From: Escherichia phage A4
Reading direction: 5' to 3' (one strand)
DNA: 64,000 bases
Sequence record: ON286972
A program made the position numbers and the translations under genes. Within the stretch, counting starts at the first letter, position 1; every line of letters starts with the position of its first letter. Below, in pieces: positions 12,689-64,000 of this stretch. The notes beneath the pieces were generated by a model. That model did not search any database. It was not told the origin of the DNA and saw only the letters and a program-made list of their open reading frames with translations.

Positions 12689-13067
<379 letters not shown>

Positions 13068-13068
13068 C

Positions 13069-14083
<1,015 letters not shown>

Positions 14084-22071: not shown

Positions 22072-22100
22072 AAAAAGCCTCCATATGGAGGCTTTTTTTA
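22072..22100. terminator. bidirectional rho-independent terminator between convergent genes
   Basis: hairpin AAAGCCTCC-ATAT-GGAGGCTTT flanked by A-run and T-run. Confidence 0.65.
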
Positions 22101-23255
22101 TTGTTTGTCATAACCAATCACTACAATCTTAGCATCAAATGCTTCGACAGAAGTAATTGTAACATTCTCATCATCATCAAGCTGAATTTCACATTGAACT
22201 GCATCATTGTTAATATCATATACTTGAACAAAAACAAATTCTTTCAAGTGTCCAGTACTGGATATATTAATTTCATACATTTCACCATTGCGTGTCCATT
22301 CAGAAGAAGAGACATTTTGTACATATGGAGATGTTTGTAATGTACTACCCAATATACTTAGTTTTATAGGTGTATTATCATATATTGTTACTGTAATATC
22401 ACCAGTGGAGCTAACATTAATGCCAGCAGATACCAAATTATTATGATTATCATATACCTGAATAGCTAAGTTATTACCACGCCCATGTACATCACCAGGG
22501 ATTCTTGCACTATACACATCACCAGGCCCAGTACTGAATGTAGTTACTGATACAGTAGTGGTAAAGCCGTCATCATCACCAACATCTAATATATTAAAAT
22601 TAACGCTTTTTGTATTATAAAAATCAGACGTAAGAGTTATAGTTGCAGTTCCGGTTGACATAATTTCCGGTACTGTTATAATGAATTCATCATTGACTAT
22701 TGTACTCGTTGAATACTCGGACCCATCTGAAAATTTTACAGTAATTGTCATTCCTGTTGTGTTGATGGTTTGTCCAGCATTGAACAGTTTACCCGATATT
22801 TCAGTATCCCCAACATGAACCGGATTAACTAAAATATTATCTATATCACGATCAATAATTGAACAAGTTGGTGTGTACATATCAAAAGTAACATCGGAGT
22901 TTCCAAATATCGTTTTGTGTAATTGGAATTTAGTTACAAACCCTGTTGGATCTGTAGGTTTCAATTGATTAGTGTATCCACGAACAAAGAAAGTATTCTT
23001 TGCAATAACATCCAATAATTCATCATCGGATTTTTTATAGTTAAGTAAATTTCCTACCTTATCATAAGAAGTAATTTGTACGCGTCTATATATTTTGTTT
23101 GTTACAGGATCTATAATATCAAATAGTTTATAACTACGCTGTCTGTAAATTCTTATATTTTTTAATTTGGTTCCATCGATTAGTAAAGCACCATCCACGA
23201 TATAACCACATTCACCGAACTTGTATTCTCCGGCATCAGCTATGGTTCTAGACAT
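22098..23255 (-). CDS. beta-rich, Thr/Ser-rich protein (candidate virion/structural protein)
   Basis: 385-aa minus-strand ORF with GAGGGG SD, isolated among + strand genes; composition typical of fibre/Ig-like domains (inference). Confidence 0.6.
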   Translation of the reverse strand: MSRTIADAGEYKFGECGYIVDGALLIDGTKLKNIRIYRQRSYKLFDIIDPVTNKIYRRVQITSYDKVGNLLNYKKSDDELLDVIAKNTFFVRGYTNQLKPTDPTGFVTKFQLHKTIFGNSDVTFDMYTPTCSIIDRDIDNILVNPVHVGDTEISGKLFNAGQTINTTGMTITVKFSDGSEYSTSTIVNDEFIITVPEIMSTGTATITLTSDFYNTKSVNFNILDVGDDDGFTTTVSVTTFSTGPGDVYSARIPGDVHGRGNNLAIQVYDNHNNLVSAGINVSSTGDITVTIYDNTPIKLSILGSTLQTSPYVQNVSSSEWTRNGEMYEINISSTGHLKEFVFVQVYDINNDAVQCEIQLDDDENVTITSVEAFDAKIVVIGYDKQ

Positions 23256-28408: not shown

Positions 28409-29371
28409 GTGAAGAAACTAGACTTAAACGCAATTTCCGAAGAAGTACTGGATGAATGTTTTGCGAATGAAGAAGTCAATCCATTGGAAGCAATTGAACC
28501 ATCAGAAGTTATTGAAGATGATATTCCACATAAAGTTCGTAGTAAAAGTAACATTAGTCTCAAGCGTCCAGTAGGTGTGACTAATGAATCCATCATCGAA
28601 GAGATTCGTGCTGGAATTAATGTAAAAAAGAACACTGACCTATTACTTCGTTATAACTATGGTATGATCGTTGATGTTGCTTCAAAGTGTACATGTTATA
28701 TTCCGTTTGAAGATAAAATTGCATATGGTGTAGAAGGTTTTATGCGAGCACTTAAAACCTTTGATCTTAGTAAGAATGTCAAATTCATTACATATGCAAC
28801 AACGTCCGTTTATATGACTATGTATAATGAAAGTTCAGATGCAAATTACATGGTGTACTTACCACGTTATATGAGCGTTCATAACATCCAAGTACGTCGA
28901 TTTAATGAATCATATCAACGTGAACACGGTAAGCGACCTACACCAGAATTAATCTCTGAGAGTACTGGTATCGAGCTTCAGCACGTTAAGAACTGTTTGT
29001 TATACCAGAATGCATATACGACTCTTGATGCACAACTGGGTTCAGATTCAGACGGAACCCTTGGGGATATTCTGAGTTCATCTGCTCGTGATTATAACCT
29101 TAATGTTGATAGCATTTGTAATCCATTACGTTATGCAATCACAGAAATCATTGACGAATTGAGTACTAAAGAACGAGAAATTATCATGCGTGTTCATGGT
29201 CTTGGGGATTACAAAGCAGAAACCCTTCGTGAAATTTCTGATAATGGATATGTTGATGATAAAGGAAACATTGTTAAGTCCCGTTCATCTGTGCACCGAA
29301 AATATAGTGAAGCTATTCAAAAGCTTAAAAAAATAGTACTTGAAAAAGGGTACGAATACGAAGATTTCTAA
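28409..29371 (+). CDS. sigma-70 family RNA polymerase sigma factor
   Basis: region 2-like LLLRYNYGMIVDVA...GVEGFMRALKTFD...KFITYATTSVYM and region 4-like HTH TKEREIIMRVHGLG...TLREIS; GTG start after AGGAG SD. Confidence 0.75.
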   Translation: MKKLDLNAISEEVLDECFANEEVNPLEAIEPSEVIEDDIPHKVRSKSNISLKRPVGVTNESIIEEIRAGINVKKNTDLLLRYNYGMIVDVASKCTCYIPFEDKIAYGVEGFMRALKTFDLSKNVKFITYATTSVYMTMYNESSDANYMVYLPRYMSVHNIQVRRFNESYQREHGKRPTPELISESTGIELQHVKNCLLYQNAYTTLDAQLGSDSDGTLGDILSSSARDYNLNVDSICNPLRYAITEIIDELSTKEREIIMRVHGLGDYKAETLREISDNGYVDDKGNIVKSRSSVHRKYSEAIQKLKKIVLEKGYEYEDF

Positions 29372-31284: not shown

Positions 31285-31312
31285 TTGACATAAGATATCA
31301 GTACTGTATAAT
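31285..31312 (+). promoter_or_regulatory. sigma70-type promoter (TTGACA-N16-TATAAT, CAGTACTG before -10)
   Basis: shares CAGTACTGTATAATGTTTAT with promoters at 13025, 13435, 42875. Confidence 0.55.
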
Positions 31313-40374: not shown

Positions 40375-41913
40375 ATGCCAGGTAAATTCACTGACAAAAA
40401 CGGCGGCAATATGGCTGGACACTCTGATAAATGGAGTGATGAGAATCGTCGCAAAAATAGTTTCCAAGCGGGGCAAGGTTCCCGTGGCTCTCGCAACCAA
40501 GGAACGGGAGAAGCTGGGAAAGCAAACACAGTTGCATCACAGGGTCTTGATACTTCAAACATGTCCCAGCATGAAAAATTGAAGTACTTCAATAGTCTTG
40601 GTCTTTTAAATCCGCAGCAGAAGCAACAACTTGCTGCACTGGATAAAGCACAAGAACAACCTAAAGCAGCACCAGAAGCACCTGCACAGCCTAAAGCGGC
40701 TAATCCGGTAAAAGAACTAAGTGATAAACTTGGGAAGATCTTTGCTAACAAACCACAACTAATTCAAGGTATCGTAAAAGCACTTCAAGCGGTTCCTAAA
40801 GAACAACTCAAGGATAAAGCACAAGCTGTTCTTGATAGTATGAAAGGGAATACCAGTACTGAACCAACTGAAGTATTCAGTACTATCATGCGTGCACTTG
40901 AAGGTAAGCCACAGGCTGATGATGATATTGAGTTTGATGAACCTGCACAAGAAGTAGCAAATCTTGACTCAATCGTTTCTACATTTGGAAAAATTGGTGC
41001 AGAAGATAAGACTAATGCACAACAAGTTAAGAATGTACAAGCTAAGTTACAAAATCGTCTTGAAGGTAAAGATGAAAAGATTAAACTTGCAGCAGATGCG
41101 TTGAAGAAAGCATTAGAATCATATAAACCTGGTGAGAAATCTCGCTTCATTACTGCAATGAATGCAGTATTCGGTGCAATGAAGAAGTATGAAGCTGAAC
41201 ACGGTGAGAAAGTAACTCCTGATGGATATCTCCTTCGCAAAGATGAAGAAGGTGCTGTTGACCAGAAGGACGCTGAACCAGACTATGGTAATTTACCAGA
41301 TACAGTTGATATGGATGGTTACATTCATCGTCCTGATATGCAAGAATTTGGTTCAGACAAAGAAGGTTTTGAACATGCTATGGCTGTGTACAAAGCATTA
41401 GTCGATAATCCACAATATGCAAATAGTTTTGTAGATGAGTTTGATAGTGCATGGAACAACTACCAAGACAAAGGATATGATTTCCCAGCAGAAGCAGCAT
41501 TCTTTGAACTAGGTAAACTTCTTGCTAAAAATGGTATTAATGTTGGTTCTAATGGTGAAGCAAACACTTCAGAAATGGACGCTGAATTGGCTAAAGATCG
41601 TGAAATGACTGATAAGTCAATTCATGAACTACAAAAGCTAATGATGTGGATTGCTGAAATTGGCAAGAAAGCTGGTGCAGATCCTAAGAGCATTAACAGC
41701 AATATTAGTTGGATTAAACATAAGGTTGATAACAATGCCCGTAAATTACAAAAGGCATGGACCGACCTAGTGAATGGTGCAGACGATGTTGATATCGATT
41801 CACCAGAAGCATACGAGTACGCATTGAACACACTTGATAACTCTTTCAAGGATTACGAAAATGGTAACGTAACTGATTGGGAAAAGGATATCATGCATAA
41901 GTACGGTAAATGA
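40375..41913 (+). CDS. large low-complexity Lys/Glu/Ala-rich protein (candidate late/internal virion protein)
   Basis: 512-aa ORF with GGAGA SD; Gly/Gln-rich N-terminus, PKAAPEAPAQPKAA linker; function inferred only. Confidence 0.6.
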   Translation: MPGKFTDKNGGNMAGHSDKWSDENRRKNSFQAGQGSRGSRNQGTGEAGKANTVASQGLDTSNMSQHEKLKYFNSLGLLNPQQKQQLAALDKAQEQPKAAPEAPAQPKAANPVKELSDKLGKIFANKPQLIQGIVKALQAVPKEQLKDKAQAVLDSMKGNTSTEPTEVFSTIMRALEGKPQADDDIEFDEPAQEVANLDSIVSTFGKIGAEDKTNAQQVKNVQAKLQNRLEGKDEKIKLAADALKKALESYKPGEKSRFITAMNAVFGAMKKYEAEHGEKVTPDGYLLRKDEEGAVDQKDAEPDYGNLPDTVDMDGYIHRPDMQEFGSDKEGFEHAMAVYKALVDNPQYANSFVDEFDSAWNNYQDKGYDFPAEAAFFELGKLLAKNGINVGSNGEANTSEMDAELAKDREMTDKSIHELQKLMMWIAEIGKKAGADPKSINSNISWIKHKVDNNARKLQKAWTDLVNGADDVDIDSPEAYEYALNTLDNSFKDYENGNVTDWEKDIMHKYGK

Positions 41914-51186: not shown

Positions 51187-51189
51187 TAA

Positions 51190-51216
51190 AAAAGCCCACA
51201 TTAAGTGGGCTTTTTG
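51190..51216. terminator. bidirectional rho-independent terminator between convergent gene blocks
   Basis: hairpin AGCCCAC-ATTA-GTGGGCT flanked by AAAAA and TTTTT. Confidence 0.65.
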
Positions 51217-53241: not shown

Positions 53242-54154
53242 TTCTATTATTACATAAAGAAGTAATATTTTTTACTACTTTATTTGAATTATAGTTTGGT
53301 AACTTCTTTAATCCACGAACAAAATTATCACAAATAATACCAGTACCATAGAAGTTATAATCTTTATCACAGTATATAAATGCTGTATCATATGGTGAAG
53401 TACTTAAATTCTTATAGAATGGGAATGGAGTGAATGTGAATTGTAGAACCTTACGCAATTCCCCTACTGTCTCTGTTGGGAATTGTCTGTTTTTATTATT
53501 ACCAATAAAAACAACTCTATCTGTTAGGAATGTGTACATAATTCCATATGGTTTTACGTACAAATCATTATATCCCAATGATAATTTAGTTGGTGATGTT
53601 AGTGGTCCTGAGTTTATTTTGGTTTGATTAATTGAAAACTCATTAGAATTATAACCAGCCCCATATGTATTACCATTAGTACTTAAATAATATACAGTAG
53701 CTTCCCCTGCTCCAAGAAAAGTCTTTACATCAGTTGCTAACGTTTTTTGGAAAGTTGGATAAAATTTATTATATGTTCCCGTTCCCATCATCAGTTCACC
53801 ATTGCGGTTATGACCACGAGCATATAGAATACCTTTGTCTGTATCTAAGAAGAACATACCATTATATGTTTTGTAAATCTTACCTTTTGTAATATCGAAA
53901 TTGGAAAAATCATCACTAATATCAATGAATATTGTCTCAAGATTATCTTCAAGGGAGTTTAGAGATTTACCACAATACCATACTGAGTTATCTTTTTTAA
54001 CAGCAACACAACCACACGGACTGGCATCAAAATATGTTACATCGGAAAGAACCAGAGATAAGTTCTTTGTACTGCAATAGTTATCCATTGCATATAAATC
54101 GGAATCTTTAAGTATATATACGGAATTCCCAACCGCTTTAATCGAATTTATCAT
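53210..54154 (-). CDS. RCC1-like beta-propeller protein (array member 9, no MLPFVRM leader)
   Basis: track ORF starts TTG at 54244; trimmed to ATG (MINSIK) after GAGGA SD; motif GILYARGHNRNGELMMG. Confidence 0.55.
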   Translation of the reverse strand: MINSIKAVGNSVYILKDSDLYAMDNYCSTKNLSLVLSDVTYFDASPCGCVAVKKDNSVWYCGKSLNSLEDNLETIFIDISDDFSNFDITKGKIYKTYNGMFFLDTDKGILYARGHNRNGELMMGTGTYNKFYPTFQKTLATDVKTFLGAGEATVYYLSTNGNTYGAGYNSNEFSINQTKINSGPLTSPTKLSLGYNDLYVKPYGIMYTFLTDRVVFIGNNKNRQFPTETVGELRKVLQFTFTPFPFYKNLSTSPYDTAFIYCDKDYNFYGTGIICDNFVRGLKKLPNYNSNKVVKNITSLCNNRNAIFVTDGWH

Positions 54155-54373
54155 GTTTATATCCTCATAAATTGATACCAATTCTAATGTATTTACCCAC
54201 TTAAAGTACAAAAAATGATCAATTAAATGGGGAATCTTTAACAAATGAATTCATGATGTACTTGATGAATTGCCCATACCAACGGATTCCTCAGTCCCAG
54301 CATACCACATGGTATTATCGAACTTTTTATCATTGTAGTATCATAACCACACCAAACATCATCAACATTAGTA

Positions 54374-55726
54374 TTACAACAATTGTATTTCTGTGAGTGT
54401 TTGATATGTTGTACCGTTGTACACACCTCTCCAATATACCCTACCTTCAGTACTAACCACTAATAATCCATATGTTGTAAACCCAAGAGTACCACCAACA
54501 TACATAGCATCTTTAATTCGAATACCAATGTCTTCATATGTAAATGAAGCGACTGCTCCCGCTTGCCACGAAGGACTAGCGTAGTAATCACTATAAACAC
54601 CATGTGCTTTATATATTGATGTTGTTCCTGGTTCAAAAATTACAGTTCCACAGTAGTTCATTCGTATTTTAGTACTGGATGAAGTCGGTACATTTATACC
54701 TATGCCATCTTTTATCCCTGTAGTTAGGACGTTAAAACCACCCGCCACACGGTTGACGTCATTCTCACCGATTAAAAACATACCAACGTTGTAGCCCATA
54801 TAATATACACTGCTACTGCCATTCCAGAAAGAAAAACCACCACCATTACCACAGCGATATAGTTGTGAATTTGAGCAGTACATCATACCTTCGTTTGTCG
54901 CATCAAATTCATCTGCTGTTCCTATTGTAGCTACAGTAGTCCACGTTTTAATCACTTGGTTTGTACTAGCTGGTGTTTGTATACCATATCGTATATTATA
55001 TCCCTTACCAACGATTGTACCATCTTCTAATTTAGCATAAAGTACAGGTCTATTACCAACAAAATACATATTATTGTGTGACATGTCTATTGTGCATCTT
55101 AATGAAACTACTTTTTGTGTCAATTGATTATCTTTAGTAAAAGAAGTAAAGTAGTAATCCGATGTTGAGTTGTTTATTAAACCTTGTATTGACAATCCCA
55201 TATACCAGATTTCACCATTGCTGTTTAATGCTGCCAAAATACAACTATATTTTGAAGTGTATGCTGGTGATGTTGTTGAAGTTGCTGGTCCTTTATCATA
55301 TCCACCACAGAATACCATCTCCACAACTTCACCTACGTTCGAAAAATAAGAAGATACATTGATAAAACCATTTGTTATAAAAGGTGCTGTATTCATACTT
55401 GAATGTGTGAATATCCCATTTGCATATACACCACAAAAATGATATGAACCATCATTATCTTGGACTATTATTCCATTTGATAGTAACCAAAAATTGTTTA
55501 CATTTTTTCTTACTAATTCAACTCCTGCACCATTGGTTGGTGTTATACCAAAAGAAACATATTTTGTTTGACCAATACCATATAAATTTCCATTAGTTGC
55601 TAGTATTGCACCAAACCAGTTCCCACCACCATTCCTATCATGACCCATACCAATGGAGTCAAATTTCTTCACAGTAGGGACTTCAACTTTATTCCCATAC
55701 TCTAGCATTCTAACAAAAGGTAACAT
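54374..55726 (-). CDS. RCC1-like beta-propeller protein with MLPFVRMLEYGN leader (array member 8)
   Basis: SD AGGAGG then ATG MLPFVRMLEYGNKVEVP; motif GNLYGIGQTKYVSFG. Confidence 0.7.
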   Translation of the reverse strand: MLPFVRMLEYGNKVEVPTVKKFDSIGMGHDRNGGGNWFGAILATNGNLYGIGQTKYVSFGITPTNGAGVELVRKNVNNFWLLSNGIIVQDNDGSYHFCGVYANGIFTHSSMNTAPFITNGFINVSSYFSNVGEVVEMVFCGGYDKGPATSTTSPAYTSKYSCILAALNSNGEIWYMGLSIQGLINNSTSDYYFTSFTKDNQLTQKVVSLRCTIDMSHNNMYFVGNRPVLYAKLEDGTIVGKGYNIRYGIQTPASTNQVIKTWTTVATIGTADEFDATNEGMMYCSNSQLYRCGNGGGFSFWNGSSSVYYMGYNVGMFLIGENDVNRVAGGFNVLTTGIKDGIGINVPTSSSTKIRMNYCGTVIFEPGTTSIYKAHGVYSDYYASPSWQAGAVASFTYEDIGIRIKDAMYVGGTLGFTTYGLLVVSTEGRVYWRGVYNGTTYQTLTEIQLL

Positions 55727-55801
55727 ATATCCTCCTTTATTCATTATATTATATTTAATCAAAAAAGAAAAGCCAGTACAGAGTACTGGCATTTAAAATA
55801 A
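55727..55801 (-). repeat. conserved intergenic cassette (terminator hairpin GCCAGTAC...GTACTGGC + T-run, AT-rich TATAAT-containing promoter-like segment, AGGAGG SD)
   Basis: minus-strand reading TTTAAATGCCAGTACTCTGTACTGGCTTTTCTTTTTTGATTAAATATAATATAATGAATAAAGGAGGATAT-ATG; recurs 6 times. Confidence 0.65.
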
Positions 55802-56977
55802 TCAAAATGTAGGAAGTTTGAATTCTCTCATAACAGATGAACTGCTTGCAGATACATTATCTGGTGATTTCCCTGCGTAGTATAATTTATTATCAATGAA
55901 CATATACAATGTTGCATCATTTCCTGCTACAAGTGATTCACTTTTCTTAAATTTAACACCACTAGGTAAAATTGCTTCAACAAATGAACCTGATTCTCTT
56001 GTAGTATTATTTGCCAATTGACCATTGTTATTATAACCAGTACTATAAATTTTACCTGAACTATAATATACGAGTCCACGAGTACTAGTGTTTTCTATTC
56101 GAATGAATTCACTATCATCTGGGACTGTAGTTGATAGAACTGGGTTTAACTTATAAGCAGATGATACATTATTATTACCCAATTGACCATAACCTTGAAA
56201 GCCTAGTGTATACATAGGACATGATTCTGGTGTGCCTTTTGTTATAATACCAATATAATTCACACTACAAAAAATGTCTATTGCTTCTGTAATAGGTGTA
56301 CCCTTATATTGAACCCAAGGGAATACATACGATTGTTGCTTACCATTTCCCAAAGTACCGGAAGTTGTTGTCCCAGTACGCCACATTGTATCATCAAGTT
56401 TAATAATCCAGTTAGCTGTCGTTATCGATGAACAGAATTTTTTAACATTATCCACTAAAAATGTAAATTGATTATAATATGATGCAGTGTTTATACCAAA
56501 CTTAGCACCAGTATTATCACCTAACAAATATAAACTATTATCTGTACCTAAAATCAAAGCATAATCATAACCCACGTATATATCTTTAATTCTTGAAATT
56601 CCAAATTGTGTAAAATAGCTTGTACATTCTGTGAATGTTGTTATATTATTGGTTGTATTATTACCTAGCCATTTATCTAAACCACTATAAAAGAATCTAT
56701 CATCATTTGTGCGTATTAGACAAAAAGCGTTCATTGTACTGCACCAAAAATCTTTAACATTGCTATATATTTTTGTCCATTCAGTTACTGCATTAGTATG
56801 ACCTAAACCAAAAATTCCACCATTCTGAAGACCAATAGCCCATATTGAACCATTTTTATCAAGCATCATTGTACATGTATGTGAATAACCACCCGATGGT
56901 GTAACTAATTTAACAAAATTGGGAATATATGGTAAAACTTTATTTCCATAATCCAACATTCTAACAAAAGGTAACAT
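55802..56977 (-). CDS. RCC1-like beta-propeller protein with MLPFVRMLDYGN leader (array member 7)
   Basis: SD AGGAGG + ATG; motifs GSIWAIGLQNGGIFGLG, GKIYSTGYNNNGQLANNT. Confidence 0.7.
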   Translation of the reverse strand: MLPFVRMLDYGNKVLPYIPNFVKLVTPSGGYSHTCTMMLDKNGSIWAIGLQNGGIFGLGHTNAVTEWTKIYSNVKDFWCSTMNAFCLIRTNDDRFFYSGLDKWLGNNTTNNITTFTECTSYFTQFGISRIKDIYVGYDYALILGTDNSLYLLGDNTGAKFGINTASYYNQFTFLVDNVKKFCSSITTANWIIKLDDTMWRTGTTTSGTLGNGKQQSYVFPWVQYKGTPITEAIDIFCSVNYIGIITKGTPESCPMYTLGFQGYGQLGNNNVSSAYKLNPVLSTTVPDDSEFIRIENTSTRGLVYYSSGKIYSTGYNNNGQLANNTTRESGSFVEAILPSGVKFKKSESLVAGNDATLYMFIDNKLYYAGKSPDNVSASSSSVMREFKLPTF

Positions 56978-57048
56978 AATTCCTCCTTTATTCATTATAC
57001 TATATTTAATCAAAAAAGAAATGCCAGCATCAAGTACTGGCATTATTG
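56978..57048 (-). repeat. conserved intergenic terminator/promoter/SD cassette
   Basis: hairpin ATGCCAG...CTGGCAT + T-run + ATATAGTATAATGAATAAAGGAGG. Confidence 0.6.
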
Positions 57049-58239
57049 TTATAGTTGTCTTGGTGTATCAAGTACATATCTATTTGTACTAGGACCACCA
57101 TCATCATACGTTCCGGTTGAATATATATTTTTCATATCAGCAGTTAGAAAAGTACGATACGAACCGCGATATATTTTTATTTTATCATACATAGAATATG
57201 ATATTTCTGCTGGCATTGGACATATAGTAAATCTACCAATAGTAACATTAGAACCAACACCCAACGAACCAGCATAACTACTCGCATTTAAACCAGTTGC
57301 ATATACACCAGTACTCGTAACTAGTATACTAGATTGTGTTGGGTATCCTGTATGAATTGAATACAAAGTTCCAGTTGGTAATGTCGTACTATTGCTCCCT
57401 AATACAGCAAGTGCCGAACTGGTTGTGGTATTGTTACCCCATGCACCATTACTCGCTAAACCACCAACTAGAAACTGACGTGCACCAGTACTTGGATTCT
57501 CAACCAAAGCACTGACTGCACCACTTGAGCATCCAGTGTATTGTAACGTTTTTGTGTATGTTGTACTTGGTTTATATAAAGTATATTCATTAAATGGTGT
57601 CCATGTGGTACTGGTACTTATACCTGACGTACCACCACCAATATATAAATTATTTTGTGTATCAAAAAACATTACACAGTTATTTGTTGACTGTATTTGT
57701 GCAATATCAACATTAGGCGTGACAGCTTTTACAAATGATCCATCTGTTATTTGTTGAGTACTACCAGTACCATCAGCGAATTGTCTAGCCCCACTCCAAC
57801 CAGTACTCCATATTGTATTATTATCCATTAATACCGTAAACCACGTAGTACCTCCATACATCTGTTTAATTGAAGTACTTGAACTTTGCGTGTACAAATT
57901 TTCAATATATTGGTTATAACTTAAAAACGTAGTAGTACTAGTTGGTAAACCAATATGATCACCATATCCACAATAAAAATAATTTGAGTCATTATCTTGT
58001 ACTAACAAAGTTCCTTGTGACACCCAGAAATCTTTAACATTTTCTCTAATTAAGGTCCATGACTTTACTGCATTACTATTTCCTATACCAAACTTCCCAA
58101 AACTATTATTTCCACGTGCGTATAGTTGACCATCCGTATAAAGAACGACAACATCTAAATCAGTTGGTGTTATTTTCTTAATTTGAATAGGGACTGGTGT
58201 TATATTCCCATAATCAAACATTCTAACAAAAGGTAACAT
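57049..58239 (-). CDS. RCC1-like beta-propeller protein with MLPFVRMFDYGN leader (array member 6)
   Basis: SD GGAGGG + ATG; motif GQLYARGNNSFGKFGIG. Confidence 0.7.
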   Translation of the reverse strand: MLPFVRMFDYGNITPVPIQIKKITPTDLDVVVLYTDGQLYARGNNSFGKFGIGNSNAVKSWTLIRENVKDFWVSQGTLLVQDNDSNYFYCGYGDHIGLPTSTTTFLSYNQYIENLYTQSSSTSIKQMYGGTTWFTVLMDNNTIWSTGWSGARQFADGTGSTQQITDGSFVKAVTPNVDIAQIQSTNNCVMFFDTQNNLYIGGGTSGISTSTTWTPFNEYTLYKPSTTYTKTLQYTGCSSGAVSALVENPSTGARQFLVGGLASNGAWGNNTTTSSALAVLGSNSTTLPTGTLYSIHTGYPTQSSILVTSTGVYATGLNASSYAGSLGVGSNVTIGRFTICPMPAEISYSMYDKIKIYRGSYRTFLTADMKNIYSTGTYDDGGPSTNRYVLDTPRQL

Positions 58240-58310
58240 ATTTCCCTCCTTTATTCATTATACTATATTTAATCAAAAAAGAAAAGCCAGTATCAAGTAC
58301 TGGCCTATAT
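58240..58310 (-). repeat. conserved intergenic terminator/promoter/SD cassette
   Basis: same cassette family (GCCAGTACTTGATACTGGC hairpin). Confidence 0.6.
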
Positions 58311-59480
58311 TTAAACTGGTGAATCTAATACAAATTCTAAACTACTAATGCCACCATATGTGACATTTGTCCCTGTGCTATATACAAAATTACCATCAGT
58401 TATATAAGTTCGGTTATACCCACCTGCCATCTGCGACTTACTATAATCAAACCCATCAGGAACGATTGCTTTGGTATATACTAATGCATTATTAGATGTA
58501 CCAATACCTAACATACCAGCTCCTGAAGATTTATTGTAGCCGCAACAATATATACCATCTGTTGTAGCAATAACTTGGTTATAATATGAAGTAATGTTAG
58601 CAATGCTTACTACATCACCGGGTGGCATTAGTGAAGCAGTTTGAACCTCAAATGCTCTATAATCACTGAGAGAACCATTTATCCCATCTGCTTGTGCACC
58701 AAATATTCTCGAACCGCCATTTGCGATGATGGTTTTACCAGTGGGATCAGTACCAATTGCCATTGCCATTGAAGTACTATTCTCCATATAGTACTTGATA
58801 TTAATTGTATTTCTTAAGCTGGTAGGAGCACCATAATATATAGTATATAACTTACCTCCTGAACTTGTAACTGCATTTACTCTTCCTGTATAAAATAGCC
58901 ATCCTTGGTTTGTAACATAACCGTGCATTAAATTACTTGCAAACAATTTAACAGGTAATTGATCTGCTGCGGTCGGAACAGTACTTTTGACGAATTTTCT
59001 AGCAACATTGTTAGTTGTTGTCCCATCACCCAACTGACCATCACCCCCTGCTCCAGTACTCCATATTGTTTGGTCTGTTAGTAATACACTTGTAGTCTGA
59101 TAACTAACTGCTATATCTAATATTGGTAATGTTAACGTATCGAATGTTGGCATAGCAGAAGTCCATATTGATACTGCTGCCCCTGGCATACCAACAGTTG
59201 TTGAACTTCCACTGTACCATATTTCATCATTGCTTTTCTTAATAACTATCGACGTGGCTCCCATCCAAAAATCTTGAACATCAGAAGTGCTAAAAGTCCA
59301 TGTAGTAACAATATTTTTGTGACCTAAACCCAAAAGACCATTTGTATTCTCACCACGCACATATAAATCACCACTGTTTGTTAAAACAGCAACATTATAG
59401 TTGTTAGCTAGTATTTTTTTAATATTTGGTTTAGCAGGTGCAATATTCCCATACTCTAACATTCTTACAAAAGGTAACAT
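58311..59480 (-). CDS. RCC1-like beta-propeller protein with MLPFVRMLEYGN leader (array member 5)
   Basis: track ORF extends upstream into cassette; trimmed to SD-proximal ATG; motif GDLYVRGENTNGLLGLG. Confidence 0.7.
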   Translation of the reverse strand: MLPFVRMLEYGNIAPAKPNIKKILANNYNVAVLTNSGDLYVRGENTNGLLGLGHKNIVTTWTFSTSDVQDFWMGATSIVIKKSNDEIWYSGSSTTVGMPGAAVSIWTSAMPTFDTLTLPILDIAVSYQTTSVLLTDQTIWSTGAGGDGQLGDGTTTNNVARKFVKSTVPTAADQLPVKLFASNLMHGYVTNQGWLFYTGRVNAVTSSGGKLYTIYYGAPTSLRNTINIKYYMENSTSMAMAIGTDPTGKTIIANGGSRIFGAQADGINGSLSDYRAFEVQTASLMPPGDVVSIANITSYYNQVIATTDGIYCCGYNKSSGAGMLGIGTSNNALVYTKAIVPDGFDYSKSQMAGGYNRTYITDGNFVYSTGTNVTYGGISSLEFVLDSPV

Positions 59481-59550
59481 AATTCCTCCTTTATTCATTA
59501 TATTATATTTAATCCAAATAAGAAAGCCAGTATCAAGTACTGGCATTGTG
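59481..59550 (-). repeat. conserved intergenic terminator/promoter/SD cassette
   Basis: same cassette family. Confidence 0.6.
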
Positions 59551-60660
59551 TTATTTCGGTAAATCAATTTTAGTAAAGACTGCAACATCCTCGCTTGCAC
59601 CGGGAATGGCGTAATACGTTCCAGTACTATATACATCTCCATTTTTGGTTAATATTGAAGTCAAACCATCACTAAAAAGAACATCCCTAATCTCACTAAC
59701 TTCAACGGGTAATTGTAAATTTGTAGCACTATATATAGCACCAGTTTGAGAATTGTTTAATCCCAAACCACGGTTCGCCCCAACACCCTTCTGATATGTA
59801 CTGGTAATTACCATTTGTGTAGCAGTATTTAATGCAGGTGAATTCGTCATAAACAACGGAGAACTATTAGGCAAAGTACTTACAGGAACTGCACGGAATG
59901 TAGTCGTACCTGAACTAAGAAAGTTTGGAGTTTGACCACATACGAAATATGATGTACCATTATAGTAATTAAATGCATTACCACCAATCGCTGCATCGAT
60001 TACACCAGAACTACGTAATCCCCAAGTGTTAATTTGTGTTTGGTCCCCTGTACCATGCTGCCCACTGCTATTCCATCCAGAACTATATAGCTTATTATCT
60101 AATGTAATATACATACTATCATTTGCATTAGTCATTACTTTACGCACGTTAGTAGCACATTGAGTTAATGTGTAAATCGATGATGAGCCAATACCTAAAG
60201 AACCACGATATCCATTATCTCCTGCACCATAGAGTACTGAACTAGTGCTAAGTACAAATATTAAACCATTTGTACATACAATATTAGCAATTTCACTCAC
60301 TGGTATAGCATTGGTAAACCAATTAGTCCTTTCAACTAATATAGTACTGTAAGAAGTAGTTGTAGAAGATGAGAACCAGTACGTTTCACCCGATGTCCAT
60401 ATCGTATTATCATTTTTAATAATAACAAGTGTACGACCACCCACGAAAAAATTAGAAACATCTGAACTTACTAATATCCATGAAGATACCGTGTTGTTAT
60501 TACCATTTCCAGATTCACCACCTTGATTTCTACCTATGTAATATAAATCATGTGAATCAGTCAATAAGAATTGACCCTGTGTAGAAGCACCAACTTTAAT
60601 TATATTTTTAGGACCGGGTACAATATTCCCGTACACTAACATTCTTCCAAAAGGTAACAT
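59551..60660 (-). CDS. RCC1-like beta-propeller protein with MLPFGRMLVYGN leader (array member 4)
   Basis: SD AGGAGG + ATG; motifs HDLYYIGRNQGGESGNG, NKLYSSGWNSSGQHGTG. Confidence 0.7.
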   Translation of the reverse strand: MLPFGRMLVYGNIVPGPKNIIKVGASTQGQFLLTDSHDLYYIGRNQGGESGNGNNNTVSSWILVSSDVSNFFVGGRTLVIIKNDNTIWTSGETYWFSSSTTTSYSTILVERTNWFTNAIPVSEIANIVCTNGLIFVLSTSSVLYGAGDNGYRGSLGIGSSSIYTLTQCATNVRKVMTNANDSMYITLDNKLYSSGWNSSGQHGTGDQTQINTWGLRSSGVIDAAIGGNAFNYYNGTSYFVCGQTPNFLSSGTTTFRAVPVSTLPNSSPLFMTNSPALNTATQMVITSTYQKGVGANRGLGLNNSQTGAIYSATNLQLPVEVSEIRDVLFSDGLTSILTKNGDVYSTGTYYAIPGASEDVAVFTKIDLPK

Positions 60661-60733
60661 AATTCCTCCTTTATTCATTATACTATATTTAATACAAAAA
60701 AGAAAAGCCAGTACTCTGTACTGGCATATTACA
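60661..60733 (-). repeat. conserved intergenic terminator/promoter/SD cassette
   Basis: same cassette family (GCCAGTACAGAGTACTGGC hairpin). Confidence 0.6.
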
Positions 60734-61876
60734 TTATTTCCACGGTAGAAGTGAATCAGGAACTCTGGTTGGTACTCTAACGGCTGGAACATTTCCAAGT
60801 TCAGGTAAACCACTCATATACAAATTGTTATTTTCATCAATTATCATTGAATAGAAATTATCAATTACGAAGCCTGAAATTCGTCTTCCTTCTAATGCAT
60901 CAAGAACCATTTCGGTGAAAGTTAGTATATTTTCGGATGTTTGATTAACACCACATGCACCATAGGTATTTCGACCACAAGTATATAACTTATTATTATT
61001 TTTAACAACACATCCATTCCCTTCGTTGTTGGATAAACCACCCACCAACTCTATTTCACCTTGGAATGATAAATTGGGAATTAATGTACTCATTGGTACT
61101 GCTGATACTGTACCTACACCAGCTTGACCATATGCATTTGGTGAAGCAACCTTCACTGAACCATCATTAAGAAATATATATGAAGTACGGTATGTATTTA
61201 CAGCTTGTATAGCATTGGTGATAGTATTGTCTTTTGTAAAACTTAATATATTTGATGTTTTTGTACTACCAGGAGCAACAGTATTTCCTGCATACCAATA
61301 GGAGCCATCATCAAGTACTAACCCAGTACTGAGCAAAGAACAGCCATAACTTTTAACATTTTCTATAGTGCTGTATCTGAACGATGTGACATTAGCTGTT
61401 GACGCGTTACCAAATACACCACCTTCGCCAGAACCACAGTAGAACCATTTTCCATTTTTTAAAAATACACGCAAATTCTGCCCAACAGCAATACCATCAA
61501 TATCATCAGCACTGACACCAAAATCAGTGAAGTACTGGGTTACATCAATCCAAACCCCATTTGTATTTGTTCCGATTTGTGGCATTACTATACTAGCACC
61601 TGTGAACCAAATAGTTCCATCATTCTTAATGGCAATGGAACCAAGAACACCACCCCAGTAACGTTCAATATTATTATTCACACGGGTCCATACGGTGGAT
61701 GATTGTAATGAACCATTACCACCTTGTCCAAATGAAGATGAACCATACCAGTACAAGTCACCATTAACATGCAAATAAAAACGAGTATTATAATTTGCTT
61801 GTAATCTATTTTTAAATAGAGGTTTTGGTTCCGGTGCAATATTCCCGTACTCTAACATTCTAACAAAAGGTAACAT
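60734..61876 (-). CDS. RCC1-like beta-propeller protein with MLPFVRMLEYGN leader (array member 3; near-duplicate of member 2)
   Basis: 380 aa; N-terminus MLPFVRMLEYGNIAPEPKP and C-terminus ...VPTRVPDSLLPWK shared with 61949..63091. Confidence 0.75.
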   Translation of the reverse strand: MLPFVRMLEYGNIAPEPKPLFKNRLQANYNTRFYLHVNGDLYWYGSSSFGQGGNGSLQSSTVWTRVNNNIERYWGGVLGSIAIKNDGTIWFTGASIVMPQIGTNTNGVWIDVTQYFTDFGVSADDIDGIAVGQNLRVFLKNGKWFYCGSGEGGVFGNASTANVTSFRYSTIENVKSYGCSLLSTGLVLDDGSYWYAGNTVAPGSTKTSNILSFTKDNTITNAIQAVNTYRTSYIFLNDGSVKVASPNAYGQAGVGTVSAVPMSTLIPNLSFQGEIELVGGLSNNEGNGCVVKNNNKLYTCGRNTYGACGVNQTSENILTFTEMVLDALEGRRISGFVIDNFYSMIIDENNNLYMSGLPELGNVPAVRVPTRVPDSLLPWK

Positions 61877-61948
61877 AATTTCCTCCTTTATTCATTATAC
61901 TATATTTAATACAAATAAGAAATGCCAGTACTCTGTACTGGCATTATA
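61877..61948 (-). repeat. conserved intergenic terminator/promoter/SD cassette
   Basis: same cassette family. Confidence 0.6.
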
Positions 61949-63091
61949 TTATTTCCACGGTAGAAGTGAATCAGGAACCCTTGTCGGTACATTTGTAGTA
62001 GACACCCCATCAAGATTTGGTACACCGCATGTATATAAATTATCAGCATCGTCAACTAACATCGTATAGTTATATCCCCTACAAAAACTACTAACATTAC
62101 GACCTTCTAATGCAGTAAGAATCATTTCAGTGAATGTTGTTATATTTGTCGAGGTTGAACCAACACCACATTGTCCATTTGAATTAAGACCACATAAAAA
62201 TAACTTATTATCATTTTTAATTATACAGGATGGTCCAGTAAGGTTTGTACCAAGCTCACCCACTAACTCTATTTCACCTTGGAATGCTAAATTTGGAATT
62301 AATGTACTCATAGGGGCTGGTGTTGTATTCCCAGTACCTGCTTGACCACGTTCGTTGGAAGATGCAACTTTAACTGTTCCATCACTAAGAAATATATAGG
62401 AAGTTTCAATTGTATTGACTGCTTTAATTGCAGTGCTGATAGAAGTTTCTTGTGTAAATCTTAGCACGTTTTGTGCTGACGTTCCCGATATAAACGTATT
62501 ACCTGCATACCAATATGTACCATCATTGAGTACTAATGCAGTACTTCGAATTGCACAACCAGCACTTCGAACATTTTCTATAGTACTGTACGTGAATTGT
62601 GAAACGCTTGCCGATGAACCATTTCCGAATACACCACCACTCCCAGCACCACAGAAGAACCACTTTCCATTTTTCAAAAATACACGCATACACGCAGATA
62701 TAACAATACTATCAATATCATCAGCACTGACACCGAAATCAGCAAAGTGCGATGTCACATCAACCCAAACACCGTTAGTGTTTGATGCAATTACTGGAAT
62801 AACAGAACTTGTACCAGTGTACCAAATAGTACCATCTTTCTTTATCGCTATTGTTCCTTGAACACCACCCCAATATCGTACAACATTTGTATTGACGAGA
62901 GTCCATGCGGTTGAAGAGTTCAATGAACCATTACCACCTTGACCATATGATGAAGAACCAAACCAATATAGATTACCATTGGTGTGTAAATAAAATTTGG
63001 CATCTGCCGAGCATTGTAACCTATTTTTTAATCGTGGTGCGGGTTCCGGTGCAATATTCCCGTACTCTAACATTCTAACAAAAGGTAACAT
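61949..63091 (-). CDS. RCC1-like beta-propeller protein with MLPFVRMLEYGN leader (array member 2)
   Basis: 380 aa; motifs GNLYWFGSSSYGQGGNG, NKLFLCGLNSNGQCGVG; only 12 bp (GGAGG SD) after upstream gene. Confidence 0.75.
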   Translation of the reverse strand: MLPFVRMLEYGNIAPEPAPRLKNRLQCSADAKFYLHTNGNLYWFGSSSYGQGGNGSLNSSTAWTLVNTNVVRYWGGVQGTIAIKKDGTIWYTGTSSVIPVIASNTNGVWVDVTSHFADFGVSADDIDSIVISACMRVFLKNGKWFFCGAGSGGVFGNGSSASVSQFTYSTIENVRSAGCAIRSTALVLNDGTYWYAGNTFISGTSAQNVLRFTQETSISTAIKAVNTIETSYIFLSDGTVKVASSNERGQAGTGNTTPAPMSTLIPNLAFQGEIELVGELGTNLTGPSCIIKNDNKLFLCGLNSNGQCGVGSTSTNITTFTEMILTALEGRNVSSFCRGYNYTMLVDDADNLYTCGVPNLDGVSTTNVPTRVPDSLLPWK

Positions 63092-63103: not shown

Positions 63104-64000
63104 TTATTTAAAAACATACTGCGTATTAACACGAGTGCCATTGTCAAAACCAAGTACATAAAATATCTCAGCACTATTCTTAGAACCAAATAACGCACCA
63201 GTACTACTACTCAAAGTAGTATTAACCGCTAAGGGAATCCATATGTCTTCTTCTGCATCGTATCTCAATAAATTTAATGCACCATACGACACTGCATATA
63301 TATTTTTATCATATGTACTGTAACATATTTTACTAGGGTTATTACCACCAACTGGTGCTATGTTAGACCACACCGCACTTTGTATATGATATTTTTGTGC
63401 AGTACTAGTACCTTGACCAGTAATATATATGTAAGTACCATCCGTACACATATCACCACCTCCATTGTTATTTGTTCCATCACTTGTACCTAATGATGAC
63501 CATGTATTAGTACTTGGAGTATAACTGTATAACGAATTATTAGTAGGCGAACCCCACAAATATATCTTATCCCCAGCAGTAATCATCTTACTATACGCCA
63601 GTTGACTAGGCTTCCCAATACTGTTAGTGTTCAGAATCCATGTATTTGTACTTATATTATATACATAAAAATTATTACTACTATTACCTGAACCACCAAA
63701 CAAATATATTTTTCCCTGATAAGCACATAACGCACTACCAAATGTAGATACAGGTGCATTGGCTAATTGTGACCACGTTCTTGTAGTTAAATTAAAACTC
63801 CATAACTGATTATCCGTCTGCACCGCATTCTGTATACCACCAAATATATAAGCAATATTACTTTCCGCATCATACGTATAACCAAAGTTATTTCGTGCTG
63901 AAGGTACTGGTGATGTAGTAAATTGTGTTCGTACTCCACCATTTGGGCCAGGTAATGGACCTACATTCCCGAACTCAAACATTCTTACAAAAGGTAACAT
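63104..64000 (-). CDS. Kelch-like beta-propeller protein with MLPFVRMFEFGN leader (array member 1)
   Basis: start codon is the last 3 nt of the window; repeated ...TNTW/TRTW... blade motifs (STNTWILNT, STNTWSSLG, TRTWSQLA). Confidence 0.7.
   Translation of the reverse strand: MLPFVRMFEFGNVGPLPGPNGGVRTQFTTSPVPSARNNFGYTYDAESNIAYIFGGIQNAVQTDNQLWSFNLTTRTWSQLANAPVSTFGSALCAYQGKIYLFGGSGNSSNNFYVYNISTNTWILNTNSIGKPSQLAYSKMITAGDKIYLWGSPTNNSLYSYTPSTNTWSSLGTSDGTNNNGGGDMCTDGTYIYITGQGTSTAQKYHIQSAVWSNIAPVGGNNPSKICYSTYDKNIYAVSYGALNLLRYDAEEDIWIPLAVNTTLSSSTGALFGSKNSAEIFYVLGFDNGTRVNTQYVFK

Follow-up and report, generated by a model that had tools for sequence, protein, structure and literature searches.

Why would a phage place nearly the same piece of DNA in front of one gene after another, and what could such a repeat be doing there? 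The question is raised by positions 55727-61948 of a 64,000-nucleotide stretch of Escherichia phage A4 (sequence record ON286972), the whole of which is called the window below. The source phage is a diverged Asteriusvirus-like jumbo coliphage of the 121Q/PBECO4/phAPEC6/G17 group, and the identity between the window and these relatives is patchy, at 84-96%. This part forms the minus-strand end of a tandem gene array; the products are RCC1-like beta-propellers that start with M-L-P-F-x-R-M-x-x-Y-G-N, a leader that is also found, in identical type, on one Kelch-type propeller protein. Eight orthologous array proteins have been detected by mass spectrometry (MS) in phAPEC6 virions (PMC7247149), and the array genes are therefore regarded as late structural genes. 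We propose, with a probability of roughly 0.7, that the repeat may act as a composite late-gene linker, made up of a terminator, a late promoter, a Shine-Dalgarno (SD) sequence and a leader, which would double as a recombination patch.

Anatomy of the cassette

In six minus-strand gaps the elements follow one another in the same order, that is, a GCCAGTAC-loop-GTACTGGC hairpin, a T-run, the 28-mer TTAAATATARTATAATGAATAAAGGAGG and the ATG, and each unit occupies the whole gap of 70-75 nt between a stop codon and the next ATG. The recurrence had been pointed out by the initial annotation and could be confirmed by counting. The hairpin pattern GCCAGTA-N7-CTGGC is found six times (positions in Table 1) against 0.04 expected from dinucleotide-preserving shuffles, and the 28-mer is present in six exact copies, on the minus strand only, against 0 expected. 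However, the unit is larger than the 70 bp or so first given for it: alignment of the six cassettes yields a conserved block of about 115 nt, which extends about 39 nt into the coding sequence (ATGTTACCTTTTGTTAGAATGTTAGAGTAYGGGAAT) and thus includes the first 12-13 codons (MLPFVRMLEYGN). DNA identity among the units is about 95-100%. A perfect TATAAT is located 17-18 nt 5' of every cassette ATG, and a strong SD sequence, AAGGAGG, lies 5-6 nt upstream of the ATG. Past codon 13, the protein identity among the array gene bodies is 22-32%, with the exception of one pair at 64%.

No known RNA family covers the cassette, as an Rfam search of the 50-64 kb region (E <= 1) gave sub-threshold chance matches only, and no published description of the cassette was found in a literature search.

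Putative terminator hairpins

Could the hairpins end transcription? All six start 6-12 nt past the stop codon of the upstream gene, on the transcribed strand, and combine a stem-loop containing G+C with an immediate U-tract, UUUUCUUUUUU or a close variant. Their folding energies range from -10 to -15.3 kcal/mol, with z-scores of -2.8 to -4.9 against shuffled controls. Three hairpins have stems of 8 bp with a 3-nt loop and three have stems of 7 bp with a 5-nt loop, so that the loops of 3 or 4 nt in the initial annotation need correction: a 4-nt loop occurs in none. The same hairpins are recorded as terminators in G17, where ARNold terminators are annotated at these sites, and in Munch, and as terminator plus repeat_region in UE-S1. 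Across cassette types the stem exhibits compensatory changes, from G-C to A-U in the type II cassettes of EJP2 and UE-S1 and from C-G to A-U in Munch, and most of the wobble variants pair as G.U on the sense strand. Genes that open an array have no gene upstream, and here the hairpin is degenerate (-2.7 kcal/mol), whereas promoter box and SD sequence are kept. Consequently, each hairpin with its U-tract may be read as an intrinsic terminator that would end the transcript of the upstream propeller gene. The earlier claim that every paralog has its own terminator stands as to the kind of element, a canonical hairpin with U-tract annotated as such in three relatives, but not as to every paralog, since the cassette is present for only 6 of the approximately 10 propeller genes in the window.

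The loops occur in both orientations, as TCT (55772-55790) and AGA (60707-60725, 61924-61942), and as CTTGA and TCAAG at one G17 locus (L002), which suggests flip inversions between the stem arms.

A probable late promoter without a -35 element

The hexamer TAAATA is depleted about 4-fold both in the window (37 occurrences versus about 156 expected) and in phAPEC6 (229 versus about 890). Nevertheless, among 51 MS-verified virion genes of phAPEC6 outside the array, 30 have TAAATA at most 70 nt upstream (P = 4e-37), often directly after a hairpin and T-run. The phAPEC6 sites show an excess of A 6 nt further downstream, an indirect hint at a transcript start about there, and frequently a TATA-like element as well. 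The succession of hairpin, T-run and TAAATA also precedes the unrelated late genes gp035c, gp158c, gp244, gp245, gp274c and gp323c. In the window, the sites outside the array include 23296 (-) and 40323 (+), which lie before two virion structural genes placed among early genes, as well as one before the next RCC1-like gene. TAAATA occurrences in the window are likely to mark late promoters.

The cassettes fit this picture. TAAATA is invariant across every hairpin-bearing cassette aligned, from five phages, and is also present in the cassettes of Munch and EJP2, while the TATAAT varies in relatives to TATAAC (four times) and TATGAT (twice), and the spacing is altered once. The cassette ATTAAATA agrees with the T4 consensus TATAAATA at 6 of 8 positions and fully with the core TAAATA of the clade, as derived from the 30 virion-gene upstream regions. 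Neither a -35 element nor a TG extension before the -10 is found in the cassettes, the best -35 candidate being CTGGCA (4/6), in two cassettes only, and a scan of the region for the sigma-70 consensus gave 69 matches versus 74 in shuffles, that is, no enrichment. Together with the TAAATA data, these absences point to a promoter of the T4 late type, TAAATA-N3-TATAAT, as the likely reading, with transcription predicted to begin about 20 nt upstream of the ATG. Such a promoter would start the next transcript, and its reader is probably the host core RNA polymerase with a gp55-like late sigma factor of the phage. The gene for the latter lies outside the window, elsewhere in related genomes; in phAPEC6 a late sigma factor is annotated as gp237c, and the related phage CBB has a gp55-like sigma and, like the Rak2-like phage GAP32, a predicted ATAAATA late motif (PMC5259590). 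An AT-rich promoter without a -35 element, of late or phage-sigma type, had been suspected from the beginning; that part is supported by the TAAATA core before virion genes, whereas the TATAAT on which the suspicion had centred is not the discriminating element.

With the SD sequence and the first 12 codons, which encode the shared peptide, the linker would complete a self-contained late expression module for each virion propeller gene. The predictions yield late-promoter and terminator positions that could be tested in a phage group for which no transcript map has been published.

Relatives and other cassette types

Of about 40 Asteriusvirus genomes, most contain the 116-nt unit 8-16 times. 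In addition, a second type of cassette, composed of ACCAGTAC-TGAAATAC-GTACTGGT, a T-run, GTAAATAcatTATAAT and GGAG, was identified in EJP2 (locus L012) and UE-S1 (locus L001). This type II fills the array of EJP2, and two copies are located within the otherwise type I array of UE-S1. The type I cassettes, the type II cassettes of EJP2 and those of Salmonella phage Munch are divergent in sequence, and they have in common only the stem, the T-run, TAAATA-N3-TATAAT and the SD sequence. In Erwinia phage Kaldavass, genes of this family, with the same leader peptide, form a compact operon with gaps of 9-12 nt and no cassettes; the cassette is therefore an optional, lineage-specific addition.

Signs of recombination and module mosaicism

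Could the repeats also serve as sites of exchange, as the initial annotation had suggested? If gene bodies are grouped into modules at >=70% identity, the order is O F A B G C J P in the window, D A B F C E R H I N in 121Q, S L B G D A C E M T I in G17 and D U V B H E C J F in UE-S1. The cassette is not bound to a particular gene, since for modules B and G some genomes show a cassette and others a gap of 8-12 nt. Near-identical orthologues carry genome-specific, discordant N-terminal codons; for example, between module A and its 121Q orthologue the divergence is 1.2% in the body, as opposed to 22% in codons 4-12. Where the neighbouring early region (30-52 kb) can be aligned to 121Q, it has diverged by about 12%; module A is far closer to 121Q than this, which points to a recent exchange bounded by cassettes. 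Among non-orthologues, the distance between N-terminal codons is 0.125 within a genome versus 0.163 between genomes, a difference reached in 0 of 5000 permutations. As judged from the sequences, the N-terminal codons undergo concerted evolution within each genome. The points where identity switches are located in the hairpin loop (3' side) and near nt +40 (5' side).

The suggestion of a role as recombination homology is thus supported by the varying order and content of the arrays, the concerted evolution of the N-terminal codons and the breakpoints within the cassette. As the stretch of about 115 nt recurs at the borders of modules, it would also serve as a homology patch: recombination and gene conversion at the linkers may homogenise them within a genome, and may insert, delete, reorder and exchange modules between phages, a shuffling that could have a selective value. 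This would account for the RCC1 or "DNA condensation" array being the most mosaic part of otherwise similar Asteriusvirus genomes.

Alternative explanations

Could the TATAAT be the -10 element of a host sigma-70 promoter, or be read by the RpoD-type sigma factor that is encoded in the early region of the window (28409-29371, +; PHROG 351, E = 2e-50), with early or constitutive expression as a result? The perfect TATAAT at a constant distance from each ATG and the presence of that sigma gene would agree with this, and two cassettes gave a match in the consensus scan, in which TATAGT is combined with CTGGCA of the 3' hairpin arm. However, such promoters would have neither a -35 element nor a TG extension, in a region where matches are no commoner than in shuffles. 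The TATAAC of relatives has lost the critical final T, and TATGAT is found as well, while TAAATA is constant; moreover, a start 7 nt past TATAAT would leave hardly any leader before the SD sequence, and the products are virion proteins. We consider this explanation quite improbable. It is also unlikely that tandem duplication left the cassettes behind as passive relics, whose likeness is due to gene conversion alone, in a single operon run from the first promoter, with hairpins that are at most sites of RNA stabilisation or processing. Concerted evolution has been demonstrated, Kaldavass runs the gene family as an operon without cassettes, and several Asteriusvirus array junctions lack one too. 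A relic, however, would hardly persist as the same architecture in three divergent cassette types that share the functional elements alone, would not be expected to lose its hairpin only where the upstream gene is absent, and would not explain hairpin, T-run and TAAATA before unrelated late genes.

A further alternative is that the palindromic hairpin serves above all at the DNA level, as the target of some sequence-specific protein (a recombinase, a nuclease or another binding factor), so that recombination would be actively targeted to the cassettes, as it is to integron attC sites. All cassette types retain the stem core CAGTAC/GTACTG, although terminators require no specific sequence; the palindrome CAGTACTG, whose two halves form the hairpin arms, is about 50-fold over-represented genome-wide; and the loops are found in both orientations. 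Nevertheless, the palindrome is not specific to the cassettes but is scattered over coding regions, in every reading frame, the tolerated G.U variants point to an RNA structure, and short homology patches suffice for recombination in T4-like phages (PMC2839356). No recombinase turned up beside the array, where no search aimed at recombinases was made. Such a DNA-level site is, in our view, very unlikely to be the main role of the hairpin.

The composite late-gene linker proposed here has to be weighed against several observations as well. The six cassettes are copies of one another, and their shared TAAATA therefore counts as a single observation and not as six. Since concerted evolution explains much of the identity, conservation alone is no proof of function, and the N-terminal codons may owe part of their genome specificity to co-adaptation with a common partner, and not all of it to recombination. 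The base before TAAATA is T in the cassettes, which is rare at late sites outside the array (2 of 30). The exact AT box, TATA[AG]TATAAT, has 12 copies in phAPEC6, all in the array; being confined there, it was ruled out as a general, genome-wide late motif, and the TAAATA core alone generalises. In a few relatives the hairpins are weakened and the antisense strand gives the better fold, and because the stem is built from the over-represented CAGTACTG, a role beyond termination is possible. Finally, a literature search found no transcript 5' or 3' ends for Asteriusvirus or the Rak2 group.

Comparison with known systems

Of the elements described so far, the cassette comes closest to the promoter-early stem-loop (PeSL) cassette of T4-like phages (Arbiol et al., 2010, PMC2839356; Comeau et al., 2014, PMC4122927). 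Like PeSLs, which measure up to about 100 bp, the present cassette is a small conserved intergenic composite of terminator stem-loop, promoter and SD sequence in many copies. It flanks variable genes and marks the limits of insertions, deletions and replacements between related phages, and crossovers fall at the loop and in the AT-rich/SD/ATG region. However, PeSLs contain a strong sigma-70 early promoter, whereas a late-type TAAATA without a -35 element is found here; the conserved block reaches about 39 nt into the coding sequence; PeSLs flank early ORFans in hyperplastic regions, whereas paralogous virion beta-propeller genes in one tandem array are flanked here; and the carrier is a jumbo Asteriusvirus. 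Since the defining sigma-70 early promoter is absent and the block includes a coding leader, the cassette is best regarded as a late-promoter variant extending into coding sequence and not as a member of the PeSLs. The idea of regulatory cassettes doubling as recombination linkers could thus be extended from the early ORFans of T4-like phages to the late structural genes of jumbo phages.

The promoter part resembles the gp55-dependent T4 late promoters and the motif of CBB and GAP32 in being AT-rich, of a single element, without a -35 element and located before structural genes, and a gp55-like sigma is encoded in the clade that carries the cassette, as for T4. Unlike the T4 late consensus, with which its TTAAATA agrees in sequence at the positions counted above, the cassette adds a conserved TATAAT 3 nt downstream. 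The portable single-gene modules, which bring or meet their own expression signals, are also reminiscent of integron gene cassettes and lambdoid morons. Unlike in integrons, no integrase or attC is involved, and the exchange would proceed via general homologous recombination.

Leader peptide

At the internal-protein locus of T4, polymorphic virion proteins have a common short N-terminal sequence for targeting to the capsid. The array is similar in that its locus is variable and its virion proteins are highly diverged, with a common N-terminal peptide of about 12 residues: 8 of the 12 invariant columns of the protein alignment fall in residues 1-12, and the leader is kept in Munch and Kaldavass, where the codons differ. 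Unlike in the T4 internal proteins, the prohead-protease cleavage motif L/I-x-E is not conserved in the array proteins, which have MLE in the window and MVK or MIK in 121Q and phAPEC6.

An AlphaFold2 model of the product of gene 60734-61876, based on an alignment of 8 sequences, has a mean pLDDT (predicted local distance difference test) of 65.5, with values below 50 for residues 1-27. The low confidence there is compatible with a flexible N-terminal extension and is too weak to settle its role. A sequence search of the PDB returned distant UVR8/RCC1 matches only and no phage virion structure. A tentative and rather doubtful idea is that linker and 12-residue leader form a plug-and-play system for virion display, in which the leader would be a tag that docks whichever propeller it is attached to, of RCC1, Kelch or another type, on a common site of the particle and the linker a joint for horizontal module exchange between co-infecting jumbo phages, perhaps aided by a factor that recognises CAGTACTG. 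If the leader were such a docking tag, the array would offer a natural scaffold for the display of foreign domains on jumbo phage particles.

Features of the locus

The positions of the cassettes and of the surrounding features are listed in Table 1. As the ATG of the Kelch-type gene is the final base of the window, any cassette upstream of it, possibly a seventh, and the rest of the array lie outside. The two RCC1-like genes downstream of 54374 have no hairpin.

Table 1. Cassettes, array genes and associated features in the window
Feature	Position	Strand	Remarks
Cassette 1	55685-55801	-	Hairpin and GCCAGTA-N7-CTGGC 55772-55790, T-run, TAAATA 55757-55752, TATAAT, SD AAGGAGG, ATG 55726, codons 1-13 of gene 55726-54374
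Cassette 2	56936-57048	-	Hairpin and pattern 57023-57041 (one U.G pair), T-run, TAAATA 57008-57003, SD, ATG 56977, conserved N-terminal codons
Cassette 3	58198-58310	-	Hairpin and pattern 58286-58304, T-run, TAAATA 58271-58266, SD, ATG 58239, conserved N-terminal codons
Cassette 4	59439-59550	-	Hairpin and pattern 59526-59544, T-run, TAAATA 59511-59506, SD, ATG 59480, conserved N-terminal codons
Cassette 5	60619-60733	-	Hairpin and pattern 60707-60725, T-run, TAAATA 60691-60686, SD, ATG 60660; predicted transcript start about 60681-60679
Cassette 6	61835-61948	-	Hairpin 61945-61921 (11 bp, -15.3 kcal/mol), pattern 61924-61942, T-run, TAAATA 61908-61903, SD, ATG 61876
Kelch-type propeller gene	63104-64000	-	N-terminus MLPFVRMFEFGN; ATG is the last base of the window
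RCC1-like gene, module F	61949-63091	-	No upstream cassette; 12-nt gap with SD after the Kelch-type gene
RCC1-like gene, module A	60734-61876	-	Body with 98.9% protein identity to phAPEC6/121Q orthologues; window-specific N-terminal codons
RCC1-like gene, module B	59551-60660	-	
RCC1-like gene, module G	58311-59480	-	
RCC1-like gene, module C	57049-58239	-	
RCC1-like gene, module J	55802-56977	-	
Last gene with MLPF N-terminus, module P	54374-55726	-	RCC1 PHROG match weak
Late-promoter-like site without hairpin	54154-54195	-	GTAAATAcatTAGAAT and SD, before ATG 54156 of the next RCC1-like gene
Bidirectional terminator-like hairpin	51189-51215	.	Closes the array against convergent plus-strand genes
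Virion structural gene behind isolated TAAATA	22098-23255	-	Embedded in early genes
Virion structural gene behind isolated TAAATA	40375-41913	+	Embedded in early genes

The palindrome that supplies the hairpin arms is a feature of the whole genome. In the window, CAGTACTG occurs 38 times versus 0.75 expected and AGTACT 176 times versus about 22, for example at 13039-13046, 31299-31306 and 61324-61331; in phAPEC6, CAGTACTG occurs 194 times versus 3.5 expected, with an even spread over the genome. Examples are also found at the Munch, EJP2 and Kaldavass loci. As it occurs in all three reading frames of early genes, it is regarded as a DNA-level signal; no mention of an excess of AGTACT or CAGTACTG was found in the literature. 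Two identical sigma-70-like early promoters, TTGACTAAATAGTTCAGTACTGTATAATG, are located at 13025-13053 and 13434-13462 (+), each with CAGTACTG in the spacer between -35 and -10.

The cassette repeats are likely to be responsible for assembly breaks in these genomes as well. In the phAPEC6 record MK817115.1, positions 1-2430 and the end of the record show a K-A-K-A repeat with 100% identity, whose junction cassette is without an SD sequence. The published genome (350,175 bp) is shorter than the record (352,598 bp) by exactly one repeat unit of 2,423 bp. The repeat probably arose artificially when the genome was assembled or circularised at the repeated cassette, and for this reason it was left out as evidence of unequal crossing-over.

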